A DNA stretch of 64,000 nucleotides from Thermoplasmatota archaeon (GTDB lineage Archaea > Thermoplasmatota > JAKEGO01): contig JANQNK010000003.1 of NCBI GenBank assembly GCA_028279595.1, forward strand, positions 128,001-192,000. The letters run 5' to 3'. Position 1 is the stretch's first letter. Each line of letters opens with the position of its first letter. The notes beneath the pieces are model-generated. The model searched no databases. It was not told where the DNA came from and saw only the letters and a list, made by a program, of their open reading frames with translations. Position numbers and translations under genes: made by a program. Positions 43,613 to 51,047 of this stretch are shown in pieces.

Positions 43613-43834
43613 CTAACTCCCCAGGTCCCACTTCTCGGAGAACCTGTGGTGGTGTAGCTCGATGTTGTCAGCAACGTTCTGGTTCCAGTCGACAGAGGCT
43701 TCGTCACATTCGTGGCACACCACTCCCTCGAGCGGGATCTCGGTTTTTATCTCCCACTCGTCCCTGGGGTAGAACGTGCAGTCCTTGCACCAATGCCATA
43801 CGTGACTATCATATGACCTCGCGTACCTCTTCAT
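43613..43834 (-). CDS. Small Cys/His metal-binding protein
   Basis: WHWCKDC...CHEC. Confidence 0.65.
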   Translation of the reverse strand: MKRYARSYDSHVWHWCKDCTFYPRDEWEIKTEIPLEGVVCHECDEASVDWNQNVADNIELHHHRFSEKWDLGS

Positions 43835-43895
43835 ATGCGGACCCAACTATATGAATCGGATTCTCGCCTATATAATTCTTTTTATCAGTTGGGAC

Positions 43896-44348
43896 TTAAA
43901 TATGGCTCGAACACTGGCAGAATCCTACAGTTGCTTCCGACGTCGCGATGAAGATGTAAGCCTCCTCGACGCCCTTCACCGCTTGGAGCTCATTGAACAT
44001 CCTTCTGACATCTTCGGCTTCCCCCGAGAACATCATGGCCTCGCAGCATGGGGCGTGGTCGATGTCCATGTCGGAGTGCATGAAGGACCTGATCGTGCCC
44101 TTGTGTTTATGACGGACACTCGAGACACGATCGTCCGAGTCGTGGTCGTACAGGATTATCATGACTCCCTCCACGACCCCACTCATGTCCTCAAGCGAAG
44201 CCTTCTTCCTCATGAACTCCCTGAGGGCGTCCCGGACGAGCTCGGACCGGCTGACGTAGCCCATCTCGGATTTCGCAGAATCCATCTCCTCCACGGTCAC
44301 TCCCGGCAGGCTGATCGAAATGACGTTCGTCTCCTTCTGCACCATCAC
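43896..44348 (-). CDS. NikR-family RHH regulator with variant metal site
   Basis: ISISL...GY.SRSELVRDALR RHH plus ACT domain; H/HxD/CC instead of H/HxH/C. Confidence 0.88.
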   Translation of the reverse strand: MMVQKETNVISISLPGVTVEEMDSAKSEMGYVSRSELVRDALREFMRKKASLEDMSGVVEGVMIILYDHDSDDRVSSVRHKHKGTIRSFMHSDMDIDHAPCCEAMMFSGEAEDVRRMFNELQAVKGVEEAYIFIATSEATVGFCQCSSHI

Positions 44349-45160
44349 TCCATCCTCCTGTAGGCGGCGACGAAGATGAAGATACCGGCCATCGTGAAGA
44401 CTATCACCCCGCTTGTGGCGACGTCGTAGATGGCCGAGAGGATCATTCCCAGGAAGGCGCTGGACATACCGAACAGAACCGCTGCGACGGTCGTGCCGCG
44501 GAACGACAGGCCCAGTTGAAGGGCGGACAATCCCGGGAGGACTATGAGGGCAACGACGAGGATTATCCCCACCACCTTGATGGAGATGACTATGGTCACG
44601 GCGACCAGTATATTGAATCCTATGGACAGGGTCGTCACCGGTATACCGACAAGGCGCGCTGCCTGGTCATCGAAAGTCATCGAAAGGAGTTCCTTGTAGA
44701 AGACACCGAGGAAGACAACGGCGATGACGGCAAGAGTTGTGACAGTCTCCAGGTCCTGCTGATCGATCGTCAGTATCGAACCGAATAGGTAGGAGAAGAG
44801 CTCGATATTGAAGCCGTCGGCCAGCGAGATCACTATCAGGCCTCCAGCGAATCCAACGGCGAGCATCACGGCTGTGGCTGCGTCGGAGGACGCCAGTCCA
44901 AGTTTCTTCATGTAGGATATGCCCAGAACCGCGAGTATTGACACTATCATTGCCGTTAGGAAAGGATCGATGCCGAGGAAGAGTCCCAGGGCTATGCCGC
45001 CAAAGGCGGTGTGGGCTACACCATCGGCCATCATGGCCTCCTTCCTGAGTATGAGGAAGAGGCCCACCCAGGAGCACACGAGGGCAGTGATCGCCCCTCC
45101 GATTATTGCGTTCCTGAAGAAGGTGTACTCGAAGAGCCTAGGTATATCGAACAGTGTCAA
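44345..45160 (-). CDS. znuB: Zn/Mn ABC transporter permease
   Basis: D.VAH.AFGG, YLFGSIL, FD...A...G, VG..LV.AL. Confidence 0.92.
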   Translation of the reverse strand: MTLFDIPRLFEYTFFRNAIIGGAITALVCSWVGLFLILRKEAMMADGVAHTAFGGIALGLFLGIDPFLTAMIVSILAVLGISYMKKLGLASSDAATAVMLAVGFAGGLIVISLADGFNIELFSYLFGSILTIDQQDLETVTTLAVIAVVFLGVFYKELLSMTFDDQAARLVGIPVTTLSIGFNILVAVTIVISIKVVGIILVVALIVLPGLSALQLGLSFRGTTVAAVLFGMSSAFLGMILSAIYDVATSGVIVFTMAGIFIFVAAYRRME

Positions 45161-46002
45161 TGCCGTTGTTCCACCCCGCAGCTGTGTTCGTGGAATACGA
45201 AATGGAAATGGTCACCGTATCCCTTCCGGAGCAGATCGTTGGGGTCGAGGTCGGGTGCGACCTTCGCGAAATGCACGTCCCTGCTGACGCACATCGCCTT
45301 GGACATCCTGCAGAATACTGCCATAAGGTCGTGGGAGACGAGCAGGATGGTTATGTTCCGGTCCTGGTTCAGGACACTGATCCGCTCGTAGAAACGCTCC
45401 ATCGTCGTAGCGTCCACGCCGGCAACGGGTTCGTCGAGGATCATGAGGTCCGGGTCCCGGACGAGGGCCTTCGCCACGAAGACCCTCTGCTTCTGGCCTC
45501 CCGAGAGGTTGCCTATGCGCCTGTTCGCAAGCCTGGTCAGCTCCATGGCCTCGAGGGCCGAGTCTACGGCCGCCCAGTCCTCCTTTCTAAGCGGTCTTCC
45601 GAGATTACCCCGCCTCACCCTCCCTAGTCCGACCATCTCCTTCACCGTCAGGGGGAACTGGGTGTCGAAATTGATGGCTTCCTGGGAGACGTAGGCCACG
45701 CGTTCCCACTGCCGGAACCTAGAGATGTCCTTCCCGAAGAGGCGGATGCTTCCACGCTTTATCGGCAGGATCCCAAGTATCGCGTGGATGAGCGTCGTCT
45801 TTCCGCCGCCGTTCGGTCCGACGATCCCGACGAAGTCACCAGCCTCGATGTCGAAGGTCGCTTTCCTGACAACCAGCTCCTTGGACCTCATCACATCGAG
45901 GTTACGGACCTCGAGAACGGGGGTCCTATCGATGGAGCGATCGGTCGTCCTTCCATTTACTACGGTGTCTGCCTTCGACCCGACTGTAACCGACGCTATC
46001 AG
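45157..46002 (-). CDS. znuC: Zn/Mn ABC transporter ATPase (start unresolved; first canonical start 45894)
   Basis: GPNGGGKT, LSGGQKQR, LDEP, VSHD. Confidence 0.9.
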   Translation of the reverse strand: MIASVTVGSKADTVVNGRTTDRSIDRTPVLEVRNLDVMRSKELVVRKATFDIEAGDFVGIVGPNGGGKTTLIHAILGILPIKRGSIRLFGKDISRFRQWERVAYVSQEAINFDTQFPLTVKEMVGLGRVRRGNLGRPLRKEDWAAVDSALEAMELTRLANRRIGNLSGGQKQRVFVAKALVRDPDLMILDEPVAGVDATTMERFYERISVLNQDRNITILLVSHDLMAVFCRMSKAMCVSRDVHFAKVAPDLDPNDLLRKGYGDHFHFVFHEHSCGVEQRH

Positions 46003-47393
46003 ACCACTCCCAATCCTATCTTCAGGTTGTCGAGGTTCTTTTCCATCTGCTCGATGTAGTCCATTCCGTCGATCCTCCCAGTCATGAGGTATATACGTAG
46101 GACATTGACGTTCTCTCCCGTCTGTTCCTCAACCTCCGTTTCCAGGGTCTCCGCGAAATTGGTAGGATAGACCGGATCGACGAAGATCGAGTAGATCTCC
46201 TCGTCCTCCATCAGCTCGGCGAGTTCGATGATGTCCGACGTGCTCGGTTCCTCTTCGGCCCATCCCTCGATAAGACCATGCTGTTCGAACTCGTATCGGC
46301 TGGACAGGTATCCGAAGGCGGAGTGCAACACGATGATACCCGACACGGGCGCATCTGAGAGGTTGTGCATGTATGCGTGGTCCAACTCCTCGAGCTCATC
46401 CCTCAACGTTTCCCATCTGTCCGTGTAGTAGGCCTCGTGGTCGGGGTCTTCCTCGACAAGGGCGTCATAGATGGCCTCAGCCTCCTGAACAGCGGTGAAC
46501 GGTGAGATCCATGTATGAGGATCGTTCGGTCCGTGATCGTGTCCATCATCGTGTCCATCATCGTGGCCGTTATCGTGGTCATCATGCTCGTGGAGATGTG
46601 CTATCCCGAGCTTGACCAGCTCCTCCTCCGTGGTATTGAAGTGGATCATGTAAGTGGTGTTCCCCTCGAGGTCGTAGACCCCGTGCCACTCGAACGGATC
46701 CTCGTGTTCGTGTTCCTCATGTTCATGTTCCTCGTGTTCGTGCTCCTCGGGCTCGACGGTCTCGTTGCCCAGAGACACGAAGAATCCCATCTCCTCCTCA
46801 TCGTGCTCGAGGAAGATAGCGAACTCGCCCTCCTCCTCCGGCTCGAAGGTCAAGTATCCGACGTAGGTGCCGTTCTCGTCGTGCAGTGTAAGGTTGTAGC
46901 ACACGCCGTCCTCGATGTCGGCCGCTGCCGACTCGTTGGGACCGGCGGAGATCGCCTCGAACGGGCCGTCCTCGAAGAGATGGTGTCCAGCCTCCACGAC
47001 CGGATCGACATTCTCCAGGAGCTCGAGCCCTTCCGAGGTCTTGATGATGTCCTTGTTCGAGGTACTGATCGCTGGCAACAGGTCATCCTCCACCCACGCG
47101 TCTATCCCGGTGCCGCTGTAGATCAGGATATCGGCATCGTCCGCCTCGACGATGTCGGAGACTGACGGCTGGAACCCATGGAGCTCAGTGTTGTCCGGTA
47201 TGATGGTCTCTACGTAAACGTATTTACCTCCTATCCGATTGGCGAAATATCCGTGGGGATAGAAGGATGCGACGACCTTCACCTTCCCCGCTTCGGCCTC
47301 TTCCTGTTCTATCGACTGCTGGATGGCAACACCCAGCCATGTCGAGACCAACACGATTGCCACAATCACTAGAACTATCTGTTTCTTATTCAT
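45999..47393 (-). CDS. znuA: Zn/Mn ABC transporter substrate-binding protein with large His/Glu-rich insert
   Basis: VVASFYP, ELHGFQP, DPHTW.SP, H.AFGYL..RY. Confidence 0.92.
   Translation of the reverse strand: MNKKQIVLVIVAIVLVSTWLGVAIQQSIEQEEAEAGKVKVVASFYPHGYFANRIGGKYVYVETIIPDNTELHGFQPSVSDIVEADDADILIYSGTGIDAWVEDDLLPAISTSNKDIIKTSEGLELLENVDPVVEAGHHLFEDGPFEAISAGPNESAAADIEDGVCYNLTLHDENGTYVGYLTFEPEEEGEFAIFLEHDEEEMGFFVSLGNETVEPEEHEHEEHEHEEHEHEDPFEWHGVYDLEGNTTYMIHFNTTEEELVKLGIAHLHEHDDHDNGHDDGHDDGHDHGPNDPHTWISPFTAVQEAEAIYDALVEEDPDHEAYYTDRWETLRDELEELDHAYMHNLSDAPVSGIIVLHSAFGYLSSRYEFEQHGLIEGWAEEEPSTSDIIELAELMEDEEIYSIFVDPVYPTNFAETLETEVEEQTGENVNVLRIYLMTGRIDGMDYIEQMEKNLDNLKIGLGVV
46533..46748 (-). repeat. 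Coding tandem repeats for His-rich loops (EEHEH x3; HDDG-type units)
   Basis: 15-nt and 12-nt imperfect tandem units inside znuA. Confidence 0.8.
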
Positions 47394-47434
47394 CTATCAT
47401 TACCCCCTTTAGACCTCGGTTGAATCAGAGCAAG

Positions 47435-47507
47435 GTTAATATATTAATATTTTCCCAGATTTATTAATCATTACTATTATTATGTCCTGGCCTTAGTAAT
47501 TATTAAC
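47435..47507. promoter_or_regulatory. Nested inverted repeats, candidate RHH/NikR operators
   Basis: ATTAATA-N12-TATTAAT, ATTACTA-N17-TAGTAAT and outer GTTAATA/TATTAAC in the AT-rich divergent intergenic region. Confidence 0.6.
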
Positions 47508-47640
47508 ATGGTCAGTCCACTCGAGGTCGACGAGGGGTCTTTCTGTTCGTGGTCAACTATAAATCGGATGAAATCTTAATAATCCATGTAGGGGGATTTG
47601 ACATAGAGCGAGTTAGGCAGGTCCCCCAGGAGGGATACAG

Positions 47641-48045
47641 GTGAACGAGAACGAGAACACCGTAATACAGTCCTTCAGCGCACCTGCGGACCTGATCGCC
47701 AAGCTCGATGAGCTTCAGAAGGAGCGCGGATACTCTTCGAGGTCCGAGGTCGTAAGGAAGGGGCTGAGGCACTTCTTCTCTCTCATCGACGAGAGGATCG
47801 AGGGCGACCACCCGGAGGGTGTGATCGTGACCTTCCATCCTAGGAAGGCGAACGCGGCCGTGTCTGATATAAGACATAAGTATGCGGATATACTGATCGG
47901 CTACACCCATTCCCATACCGGAAGCAAGCTGTGCAACGATGTGATGCTGGTCAGCGGACCGAACGACCAGGTCAGGTCGATGATTGACGAGCTCCGGGCG
48001 ACACGGGACGTCAGCCTTGTACAGTTCGTGCCGGCCCCCAAGTGA
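47641..48045 (+). CDS. nikR: NikR-family RHH regulator with canonical H/HxH/C site
   Basis: GYSSRSEVVR RHH; IRH...THSH.....C. Confidence 0.8.
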   Translation: MNENENTVIQSFSAPADLIAKLDELQKERGYSSRSEVVRKGLRHFFSLIDERIEGDHPEGVIVTFHPRKANAAVSDIRHKYADILIGYTHSHTGSKLCNDVMLVSGPNDQVRSMIDELRATRDVSLVQFVPAPK

Positions 48046-48067: not shown

Positions 48068-48823
48068 TCAGAAAGCTCCAGCGATTGCATCGAACAGTCC
48101 CAGGAACCTCAATCCTATAACAAGGAGGAAGACACCGAAGACCCTTCTGAGATTCTCCCTTGAGATACTTATCGTAGCCCTGGCTCCGATCATCGCAGTG
48201 ACAGCCCCCGCCACACCGATCGCGATCCCCGCGGTGATGTCAGGAACCCCCTGATAGACGTACTGGGCCGTGGCTGCCGATGCGTTCACTACGATCACGG
48301 CTGACGACGTCCCCACGGCATGCCTGATGTCGAAGCCCATGTAGATCGTCATGAACAGCACCATGACGATCCCTCCGCCGATCCCAAGGAACGCAGCCAC
48401 GATCCCGACGAGGAAACCATACGGGATGATGACCATCGGATTCGACCTGGGCCTCCCGGCCTTCAGGGATTTCCCAGTATGGAGGAATCGATAAGAGAGG
48501 ATGAGCAGGAACACTCCGTAGATGAGCTTGATGGCCTCGGTCGGAGTGTTTATGGAAGCCAGTGCACCGATCTGTGTGCCAGCTATTGCCGGTACAGCCA
48601 GCATCACCGCTGTGCGAGGTTTCACATGGCCGAGCTTCCTGTGGGTCGCACTTCCGGATAATGTTATGATAATTATCGCAACGAGCGAGGTGGCGATCGC
48701 AACGTGCGGATCGACCCCTATCAGGATGAGGGAGGGTACTATGATGATGCCTCCCCCGATACCCAGGAGACCGCTGGCCAACCCGGCCAGGAGACCGATG
48801 ATAACCCCCACCAGTGGGTCCAT
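48068..48823 (-). CDS. TauE/SafE (TSUP) family transporter
   Basis: Two G.GGG motifs, A.ATSL, AVGTS. Confidence 0.92.
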   Translation of the reverse strand: MDPLVGVIIGLLAGLASGLLGIGGGIIIVPSLILIGVDPHVAIATSLVAIIIITLSGSATHRKLGHVKPRTAVMLAVPAIAGTQIGALASINTPTEAIKLIYGVFLLILSYRFLHTGKSLKAGRPRSNPMVIIPYGFLVGIVAAFLGIGGGIVMVLFMTIYMGFDIRHAVGTSSAVIVVNASAATAQYVYQGVPDITAGIAIGVAGAVTAMIGARATISISRENLRRVFGVFLLVIGLRFLGLFDAIAGAF

Positions 48824-48989
48824 GGTACCGGAAAAGAGCGGTCGTATTTAAGGTTCCCCGGGTTAACCTCCCGAACGCCAAGCCGTACCAAAGTCCATCA
48901 GGCATTGGCCGCTTCAATATATATTGTCGCCAAAGCCCTTTGGTCGGGAACCAACATTTATATGAGGGATGCGATTCCCACAGGATAGC

Positions 48990-49187
48990 ATGCAGGTAGA
49001 GATGGACAGGGTGGACTACATCACGGAGACCGCCCTCACGATCAGGGACACCCGTCGGAGGACGACGGTTCCCAAGGCGATAGTCGACCGACTGGAGCTG
49101 GAGAACGGCGACAAGATCAGGTGGATAATGTTCGACGACAAGTCGATAGTGATCACCAAGGTCAAGAACGGTTTCTCCGAGGATTGA
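48990..49187 (+). CDS. AbrB/MazE/SpoVT-like DNA-binding protein
   Basis: RTTVPK.IVD.L.L..GDKI.W. Confidence 0.8.
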   Translation: MQVEMDRVDYITETALTIRDTRRRTTVPKAIVDRLELENGDKIRWIMFDDKSIVITKVKNGFSED

Positions 49188-49201
49188 GGGACTGATAACG
49201 C

Positions 49202-50143
49202 ATGGTGTTCCTCGATCCTGCCTCAATCGTCGTTATCGGCTTCATATCCCAGTTCATCAACGGTTCGCTGGGAATGGGCTTCGGAGCGACCTCGTCTTCG
49301 CTCTTCATAGGCCTGGGTCTCTCCCCGGTCATAGTGTCTGCATCGGTGCACATCGGCAAGGTCTTCGCAGGCTTCGTTTCGGGGGCCTCGCATCAACACT
49401 TCGGCAATGTGGACAAGGAGCTGACGATGAGGTTGACGGCCATGGGTGTCGTCGGCGGCGTCATCGGAGCCTTCTTCCTTTCGAGGCTGGCCACCGACTT
49501 CGTGGTCCCGTTCATCGCGATAATCCTGCTCATCATGGGCCTTCGTATCTTCCTTCGTTTCTTCATCCAGAAGGCAGAGGCCCATCCTGGTCCCCCCTGG
49601 GGGCAGTTCTCCACCAGATTGCTTATCCCGCTGGGTTTCGTCGGAGGCCTCGTCGATGCATTCGGCGGAGCGGGCTGGGGCCCGATCTGCATGGCCTCTC
49701 TGGCTGGCAGGACGAAAAAGGAGATCCGTGTCCTCATCGGGTCGGTGAGCATGGCGGAGTTCTTCGTCTCACTCGCAGTGGTCGCTACCTTCATAGTGCT
49801 CCTCGGTGAGGGGGGTTTCTTCCTGTGGCTCGTCTTTCCTTTAGTGATAGGAGGCGTCCTGGCAGCACCGATAGCGGCCTATGCCACGACCAGGATCACA
49901 CCCACCAGGCTCGGTATGGTCGTGGGCATATTCCTGGTCGTGATTAACACCATCACTCTTGCAGGATCGCCATTCCTCACGGACGGGCCGATACCCGTTC
50001 CATCGGCCGCGATCGTGATCATGATCACATCGGCCGTGCTGTTCACCGTTTGGTGGAAGAAGTGGCGTCTGATCAAGACCAGGGAGGAGAGACAGAGGGC
50101 TCGGCGCAGGTTCGGCCGGGCCTTCAGGCAGAGGAAGGCGTAA
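49202..50143 (+). CDS. TauE/SafE (TSUP) family transporter
   Basis: GSLGMGFG, SASVH, H..FGNVD, DAFGG.GWGP, IGSV..AEF. Confidence 0.9.
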   Translation: MVFLDPASIVVIGFISQFINGSLGMGFGATSSSLFIGLGLSPVIVSASVHIGKVFAGFVSGASHQHFGNVDKELTMRLTAMGVVGGVIGAFFLSRLATDFVVPFIAIILLIMGLRIFLRFFIQKAEAHPGPPWGQFSTRLLIPLGFVGGLVDAFGGAGWGPICMASLAGRTKKEIRVLIGSVSMAEFFVSLAVVATFIVLLGEGGFFLWLVFPLVIGGVLAAPIAAYATTRITPTRLGMVVGIFLVVINTITLAGSPFLTDGPIPVPSAAIVIMITSAVLFTVWWKKWRLIKTREERQRARRRFGRAFRQRKA

Positions 50144-50177
50144 CGTTTTTAATGACGTAGCGTTGCTGGGTATCCCT

Positions 50178-51047
50178 ATGTCGGAAGAGAAGGGCTGTGG
50201 CTGTGGCACCAAAAACGACGTCAGCGATGAGGAGATCAGGCGCATCGTCAGGGAGGGCTATGCCCAGATATCCAACGAGGGATCCTGCTGCAATCCGGTC
50301 GTGTCCAGCACGCCCAGCGACACCGATGACCTCGCAAGGCACATCGCGAAGAAGATGGGCTATTCCACCGAGGAGCTCGACTCCATCCCGGACGGGGCAA
50401 ATCTCGGTCTGGGATGCGGGAACCCTGTCGCTCTCGCTTCGTTGGAGGAGGGCGAGACCGTCGTCGACCTAGGGTCTGGCGGAGGGCTCGACTGCTTCCT
50501 CGCCGCTGACCGGGTCGGTGAGACCGGCCGCGTCATCGGCGTGGACATGACCCCCGAGATGATCGAGAGGGCCCGCGGGAATGCCGCATCCGGGAACTAC
50601 ACCAATGTTGAGTTCCGCTTCGGCAAGATCGAGGAGCTGCCCATCGACGATGGAACGGTCGATGCCGTCATATCCAACTGCGTGATCAATCTCTCCCCGG
50701 ACAAGGCGCGGACCTTCGCAGAGGCGTATCGTGTCCTGAAGCCCGGCGGCCGCCTCATGGTCTCCGACATAGTCTTGCTGTCCGAGATCCCCGAATCCAT
50801 CCGGAACAGCGCAAAGGCCCTGGTAAGCTGTCTGGGCGGAGCGGTGATGAGGGACGAGTACCTGCGGCTGATCGAAGAGGCTGGATTCGAGGGCACCAAG
50901 GTCATCGACGAGATGGTCTTCCCGGTATCGGAAACGTCCAACGTCCCCACGGAGTCGGTCTGCTGCGGACCCGAGGTCTCCGAAGACGACATCGCCCGCG
51001 CCGAGGGCCAGGCAGTGACGGTGAAGGTACTGGCCTGGAAGCCGTAG
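50178..51047 (+). CDS. arsM: Arsenite S-adenosylmethyltransferase
   Basis: GLGCGNP, DLGSGGGLD, GVDMTPEM, SNCVINLSPDK, fourth Cys in SCLGGA. Confidence 0.93.
   Translation: MSEEKGCGCGTKNDVSDEEIRRIVREGYAQISNEGSCCNPVVSSTPSDTDDLARHIAKKMGYSTEELDSIPDGANLGLGCGNPVALASLEEGETVVDLGSGGGLDCFLAADRVGETGRVIGVDMTPEMIERARGNAASGNYTNVEFRFGKIEELPIDDGTVDAVISNCVINLSPDKARTFAEAYRVLKPGGRLMVSDIVLLSEIPESIRNSAKALVSCLGGAVMRDEYLRLIEEAGFEGTKVIDEMVFPVSETSNVPTESVCCGPEVSEDDIARAEGQAVTVKVLAWKP

Follow-up and report, generated by a model that had tools for sequence, protein, structure and literature searches.

Nickel-responsive NikR proteins bind nickel in a square-planar, high-affinity site of three His and one Cys (His3Cys; H76', H87, H89 and C95 in Escherichia coli). 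The NikR proteins of E. coli, Helicobacter pylori and Pyrococcus horikoshii (1q5v, 2ca9 and 2bj1) consist of a ribbon-helix-helix (RHH) DNA-binding domain and a NikR_C domain, act on operators with two half-sites about two helical turns apart, and regulate a metal importer. TroR of Treponema pallidum (troABCDR) and MDR1 of Archaeoglobus fulgidus are metal-dependent repressors of the DtxR family, each encoded by the last gene of the ABC-3 type importer operon under its control. Zinc-dependent repression of znuABC is the job of Zur, a Fur-family protein, and the sensory zinc site of Zur proteins has an N2OS donor set (PMC6103462). According to a 2024 review, NikR proteins respond to nickel only (PMC11672702). 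Kaster et al. pointed in 2011 to a NikR homologue, MTH603 / MTBMA_c09830, by ZnuABC in Methanothermobacter and proposed a zinc response (PMC3087415). A zinc-responsive NikR next to ZnuABC is thus not new as an idea; no paper testing the proposal was found in our literature search.

Here we describe a ZnuABC-like importer locus at positions 43,896 to 48,045 of a 64,000-nucleotide stretch of DNA from a Thermoplasmatota archaeon (the window). The importer operon ends in one NikR-type regulator gene, nikR-A, and a second, nikR-B, is divergent from it. From gene neighbours, ligand residues and a conserved candidate operator, we consider that NikR-A probably responds to zinc and represses a zinc ABC importer together with its own gene. 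The Methanothermobacter case is alike in having an archaeal NikR homologue beside a ZnuABC cluster, a likeness drawn here by description only; that case is a one-sentence suggestion without site, clade or operator analysis. The job proposed for NikR-A is that of Zur elsewhere, or of TroR and MDR1 at the end of tro-type operons. In build, however, Zur has an unrelated fold, and TroR and MDR1 have a DtxR winged helix in place of RHH and NikR_C, with no homology between them.

The locus and the NikR-A clade

The genes and spacer elements are as follows.

43896-44348, minus strand: NikR-A, 150 aa; RHH and NikR_C regulator with the site H79, H90, D92, C100-C101; last operon gene
44345-45160, minus strand: ABC-3 family permease (ZnuB/AztB-like); PF00950, 218.6 bits; best NCBIfam match AztB, below cut-off
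45157-45894, minus strand: ABC ATPase (ZnuC/AztA-like); PF00005
45999-47393, minus strand: ZnuA-family binding protein, 464 aa; PF01297, 187.8 bits; N-terminal membrane anchor; His-His-His-Asp ligands
47394-47640, between znuA and nikR-B: AT-rich spacer, 247 bp
47441-47467, no strand: O1, candidate NikR-A operator, ATATTAA-N13-TTATTAA, the local N13 copy of TTAWTAA-N14-TTAWTAA
47500-47506, no strand: HS3, an additional exact TTATTAA half-site, kept in four close relatives
47540-47583, plus strand: most conserved spacer block, from a phylogenetic footprint of the window and the related loci L003, L066 and L067
47558-47564, plus strand: TATA-like TATAAAT for nikR-B, inside the 47540-47583 block
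47576-47582: TTAATAA half-site just downstream of the nikR-B TATA-like element, inside the same block
47641-48045, plus strand: NikR-B, 134 aa; divergent RHH and NikR_C paralogue with His3Cys residues

The initial annotation had described a znuACB-like operon ending in NikR-A and divergent from NikR-B. The gene coordinates, which proved exact, and the Pfam families bear this out: znuA-znuC-znuB-nikR-A lies on the minus strand and nikR-B on the plus strand. The start of nikR-A overlaps the stop of the permease gene, to which nikR-A is translationally coupled, and the ATPase and permease genes share 4 nt. In the 2.29 Mb, 86% complete genome that contains the window, NikR-A and NikR-B are the only NikR_C genes and the ZnuA gene at 45999-47393 is the single copy. 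A search for Fur/Zur family genes gave none in this 86% complete genome, and one good DtxR-family gene is present at another place. The occurrence of a regulator pair around the importer is a real observation and far from chance.

Both regulators have an N-terminal RHH DNA-binding domain (Pfam RHH_1, PF01402, 24.8 bits for NikR-A and 29 bits for NikR-B against a cut-off of 20.5) and a C-terminal metal-binding domain (NikR_C, PF08753, 49.9 and 42 bits against a cut-off of 22). Every one of the five or six NCBIfam NikR models stays below cut-off, the best scores being 88.7 bits for NikR-A and 63.5 bits for NikR-B compared with 111. The two proteins are 35% identical. When NikR-A is aligned to its best solved match, P. 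horikoshii NikR (2bj1, E = 2.8e-15), the first two nickel ligands (H79 and H90) and the Cys ligand (C100) are retained, whereas D92 takes the place of the third His ligand, the loop has 2 extra residues, and a further Cys, C101, is present. Compared with known NikR, NikR-A therefore has a His to Asp change and a doubled Cys, and its His3Cys nickel site is incomplete (H, H, D, C(C)). The H,H,D,C residues make an N2OS donor set identical to that of the Zur sensory site. The initial annotation had listed H...HSD....H..CC plus a CQCSSH tail for NikR-A. The altered H/H/D/CC residues are found clade-wide; the CQCSSH tail occurs in this protein only and is not conserved in the clade.

For comparison, loci were collected from genomes at species level and from contigs of metagenomes. 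A set of 163 NikR-like representatives was retrieved with NikR-A; H,H,H,C is present in about 120 of them and H,H,D,CC in 19. These 19 full-length proteins are exactly the nearest relatives of NikR-A and form one monophyletic clade in trees. The gene neighbours of the clade are not Nik or NikMNQO as in known NikR systems, but zinc-type importers. Across Thermoplasmatota, the regulator directly follows such an importer in 28 of 31 distinct H..HxD..CC loci: it is placed after znuA-znuC-znuB in 20 loci, down to 38-41% identity to NikR-A, and after a ZIP permease (PF02535) in 8. Three loci are without either importer; one of them has Glu for Asp, and the other two represent a single gene on short contigs. 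The initial annotation had proposed to examine the phylogeny and synteny of NikR paralogues next to TroA-family transporters, and the monophyletic clade behind zinc-type importers is the outcome. NikR-like genes are widespread in the phylum (318 of 401 sampled genomes), and the strict NikR-A clade, taken at a threshold of >=159 bits with the next score at 104, occurs in about 19 of the 401, from roughly ten families. Scans of genome contigs gave mainly Thermoplasmatota loci; the matches outside this phylum were few, weak and short.

The importer and its candidate operator

A ZnuA-fold binding protein, an ABC-3 permease and an ABC ATPase in one operon (PF01297, PF00950 and PF00005) have the layout of a cluster A-I importer, and the NCBIfam equivalog scores of the transporter proteins are all below cut-offs. 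The solved structures closest to the window ZnuA are those of the zinc binders AdcA and YcdH, and the ligands align; from the alignment to AdcA (7jj8), the window ligands are H72, H293, H357 and D406. In the ZnuA family, Mn/Fe binders have a His-His-Glu-Asp site with Glu in third position, and the zinc type has three His. All three zinc-type His are present in 16 of 16 linked ZnuA orthologues, and the fourth ligand varies (D/E/N/A/K). The ZIP permeases add a second class of zinc importer, unrelated to znuACB.

The window ZnuA also carries an insertion at residues ~125-292. It is 168 residues long with 20 His and 51 Asp/Glu, where the orthologues have 5-29 residues, and includes HEHEEHEHEEHEHE and HDDGHDDGHDH runs with beta-strand-looking segments between them. 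Instead of a loop, the insertion may form a folded domain that scavenges metal. His/Asp-rich loops are found in six ZnuA orthologues.

A shared motif stands before the importers of the clade. With at most one mismatch, TTAWTAA-N14-TTAWTAA has 23 copies in 222 kb of locus DNA. Of these, 17 are no more than 150 nt upstream of a znuA start, and all 15 loci with upstream DNA are covered. Copies of the motif are also present 50-63 nt before ZIP genes and in front of an H,H,H,CC relative that stands alone (L053). An N13 version, ATATTAA-N13-TTATTAA, is present in the window and its close relatives. In the window this element, O1, lies 48-74 nt upstream of the znuA ATG, which is the expected TATA/BRE place of a short-leader archaeal promoter, and O1 probably overlaps the znuA TATA/BRE. 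Compared with E. coli NikR, the half-site is AT-only, and the reading strand has Ile/Val in place of the G-reading Arg.

The whole window genome has 109 TTAWTAA half-sites, three exact ones being inside the 247-bp spacer. A search for pairs with the O1 spacing, with one half-site exact and at most one mismatch in the other, returned only three in 2.29 Mb, O1 among them. The other two pairs, at C3:22822 and C4:89885, were rejected as regulon sites, their neighbouring genes having no metal link. No O1-type site was found at the ZIP gene of the window genome itself.

From these elements, a mechanism may be proposed. The four genes znuA-znuC-znuB-nikR-A would form one operon for a high-affinity zinc importer. 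Under zinc sufficiency, NikR-A, presumably a tetramer, would take zinc at its His2-Asp-Cys(Cys) site, and the zinc-loaded protein would bind the two half-sites of O1 (47441-47467) over the znuA core promoter. The importer and nikR-A itself would then both be switched off. We infer zinc as the effector, the repression mode and the binding of O1 by NikR-A. If this is true, the H..HxD..CC clade would give the NikR family a second effector metal, with one ligand swap retuning the sensor, and the missing zinc-uptake regulator would be supplied for archaea without Zur.

One genome, G093, provides a natural paired control. Its canonical NikR (99.7 bits, His3Cys site, Arg in the strand that reads DNA) is convergent with cbiM-N-Q-O; a separate H,H,D,CC paralogue is placed after a His-rich membrane protein behind TTAATAA-N14-TTAATAA. 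The cbiM promoters of four Thermoplasmatota genomes (L068, L070, L071 and L072) contain a different dyad, GTAGCAC-N13/14-GTGCTAC, before cbiMNQO-type genes, and this dyad probably serves the canonical NikR of Thermoplasmatota as its operator; no good copy of it was found in the window genome. Together with the site signature and the TTAWTAA operator, the G093 pair makes the 2011 suggestion directly testable.

The His-rich protein that precedes the H,H,D,CC NikR in G093 (L073:1796-2524, minus strand) is a multi-pass membrane protein of 242 residues; it contains a DEEDDHDEDHHH loop and matches no Pfam family. It is a candidate for a third, undescribed class of metal importer in the regulon.

NikR-B and the rival explanations

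The initial annotation gave NikR-B a canonical H...HxH...C site, and the alignment agrees: all four nickel-ligand residues are present (H..H-S-H..C). In a 164-sequence tree, NikR-B is on a long branch within a 32-leaf superclade (support 0.97) that holds every H,H,D,CC protein. The sites of its sub-branch are mixed (HHHCL, HSHCV, HHCCV and FQHCV). One member, P0026, adjoins znuACB and a P1B ATPase; another, P0045, has a canonical His3Cys site and directly follows a ZIP gene behind TTATTAA-N15-TTATTAA. NikR-B is about 31-37% identical to the zinc-linked clade compared with 24-27% to the canonical NikR of related genomes. Because of this placement, the zinc-type links of P0026 and P0045 and the higher identity to the zinc-linked clade, His3Cys alone is not sufficient to call NikR-B a nickel sensor. 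The view of it as a plain canonical nickel sensor is weakened, and it appears not to be an ordinary nickel NikR. By its place in the tree, NikR-B is a lineage-specific paralogue from the importer-linked superclade, and it probably recognises half-sites of the same kind as those of O1 in the spacer that both genes share. It was also claimed that the two regulators differ in their DNA-reading strands. The letters do differ (VISISL versus IQSFSA), but the DNA-facing residues are of the same kind in register (V/I, S, S), a pattern shared with many NikR-like proteins. Therefore, the strands are no evidence for different DNA specificity. The D34-equivalent position is Lys in NikR-B, a position that is variable across the family.

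At E <= 1e-22, no NikR-B relative was found in 400 other sampled genomes of the phylum. Beyond the window, it is known only from two metagenome contigs, nearly identical to each other and laid out alike, and from two short contigs, and outside the closest relatives it is absent from every other NikR-A locus. NikR-A thus does not need NikR-B. The zinc sensor part of the initial annotation is favoured by the NikR-A clade, its altered site, the importer linkage and the conserved operator, all from comparative genomics. The other part, a heterotetramer or logic gate, fares badly: NikR-A-type genes occur without NikR-B in all other lineages, and nothing supports the proposal.

NikR-B itself could be a nickel sensor or provide a second zinc set-point. 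We regard it as rather unlikely, while worth stating, that two paralogous NikR-type sensors (NikR-A with N2OS and an extra Cys, NikR-B with N3S) control the only high-affinity zinc importer of the cell through the same AT-rich half-sites in the 247-bp spacer, with zinc and nickel as inputs or a two-set-point zinc response. If it were true, a family said to sense nickel only would have diversified into multi-metal sensors in archaea. A related and improbable explanation is a two-input circuit on one promoter region, for nickel and zinc or two zinc set-points, in which separate tetramers sit on neighbouring half-sites or mixed tetramers are formed. The spacer suits it in having O1 plus two more conserved exact half-sites, one of them just after the nikR-B TATA box; NikR-A and NikR-B belong to one superclade using TTAWTAA sites, and the pair is kept in the closest relatives. 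The restriction of NikR-B to those relatives speaks against such a circuit, as does the spacer itself, in which no second full operator could be defined. The footprint conserves the half-site at 47500 and the block 47540-47583. A large dyad at 47464-47506 was rejected as a NikR-B operator, its register not being kept in L003, and for the conserved TTCTGTTCGTG block, sought as a NikR-B operator or regulon site, no informative second copy was found in the window genome.

Several observations weigh against NikR-A as a zinc-responsive repressor. Its metal specificity is deduced from the neighbouring genes and from which ligand residues it has. Six loci (L026, L036, L023, L027, L030 and L032) have a co-directional CDF (cation efflux) gene after the regulator, and these importer-regulator-exporter strings make a simple uptake repressor a poor fit. 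The window O1 deviates from the clade motif in its N13 spacing and one mismatch, and the half-site is AT-rich like archaeal promoter elements. The others concern nickel. The window genome has a group-3b-like [NiFe] hydrogenase operon at contig C10:90000-95000 (L048), with large subunit, small subunit, a fused Fe-S/FAD/NAD subunit and HycI protease, in addition to HypA, and no CbiM or NiCoT nickel importer was found in it. Of the 26 clade-bearing genomes, 24 have HypA above the Pfam cut-off and all 26 have some match to it; 24 have a [NiFe] hydrogenase large subunit. Absence of nickel enzymes was consequently dropped as a discriminating test for the clade, nearly all clade-bearing genomes using nickel. 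In three of them the H..HxD..CC protein is the sole NikR-like protein.

These nickel observations, and the membership of both regulators in the NikR family, agree with the explanation that both sense nickel and that the [NiFe] hydrogenase receives its nickel through the ZnuABC-like transporter, whose binding protein is very rich in His. We give this explanation a small chance. Every linked binding protein has the three-His, zinc-type site, and we know of no cluster A-I (ZnuA/TroA-type) nickel importer. The same regulator clade follows ZIP permeases as well, and Asp replaces the nickel ligand His clade-wide. The neighbours in 28 of the 31 loci are znuACB or ZIP, with no such linkage to nickel uptake or nickel enzymes. 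The nickel/cobalt ECF transporter of G093 is paired with a separate, canonical NikR, and its operator is of another type. Nickel could also be supplied in the window genome by an Opp/Nik-family ABC system on contig 1, for which the DppA and NikA models give similar scores, each far below cut-off. Gene context and site chemistry therefore make nickel sensing by the clade unlikely. It is similarly hard to favour a NikR-A that senses another divalent metal (Mn, Fe, Co or Cd) beside importers of broad range, and we hold its probability to be low. ZIP and CDF proteins can carry several metals, the fourth ZnuA ligand is variable, and in one locus (L043) a DtxR gene and feoAB adjoin the operon. However, the third-position His in 16 of 16 ZnuA proteins is unlike the Glu of Mn/Fe binders, the best solved ZnuA relatives bind zinc, and Cys-containing N2OS sites are typical of zinc sensors.

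Neighbouring genes

A small open reading frame (ORF) of ~73-77 aa is found at 43613-43846 on the minus strand, 49 nt downstream of NikR-A. It has two CxxC pairs and an HHH run, and is at the same place in L003 and L004 with 73% identity; no Pfam family matches it, and the genome holds it only once. It may belong to the operon as an additional gene. After NikR-B, the region 48068-51047, with no TTAWTAA sites in its promoters, holds two TauE/SafE-family membrane genes, a small AbrB/MazE-like gene and an arsenite methyltransferase, ArsM (322.7 bits), and this block is conserved in L003.

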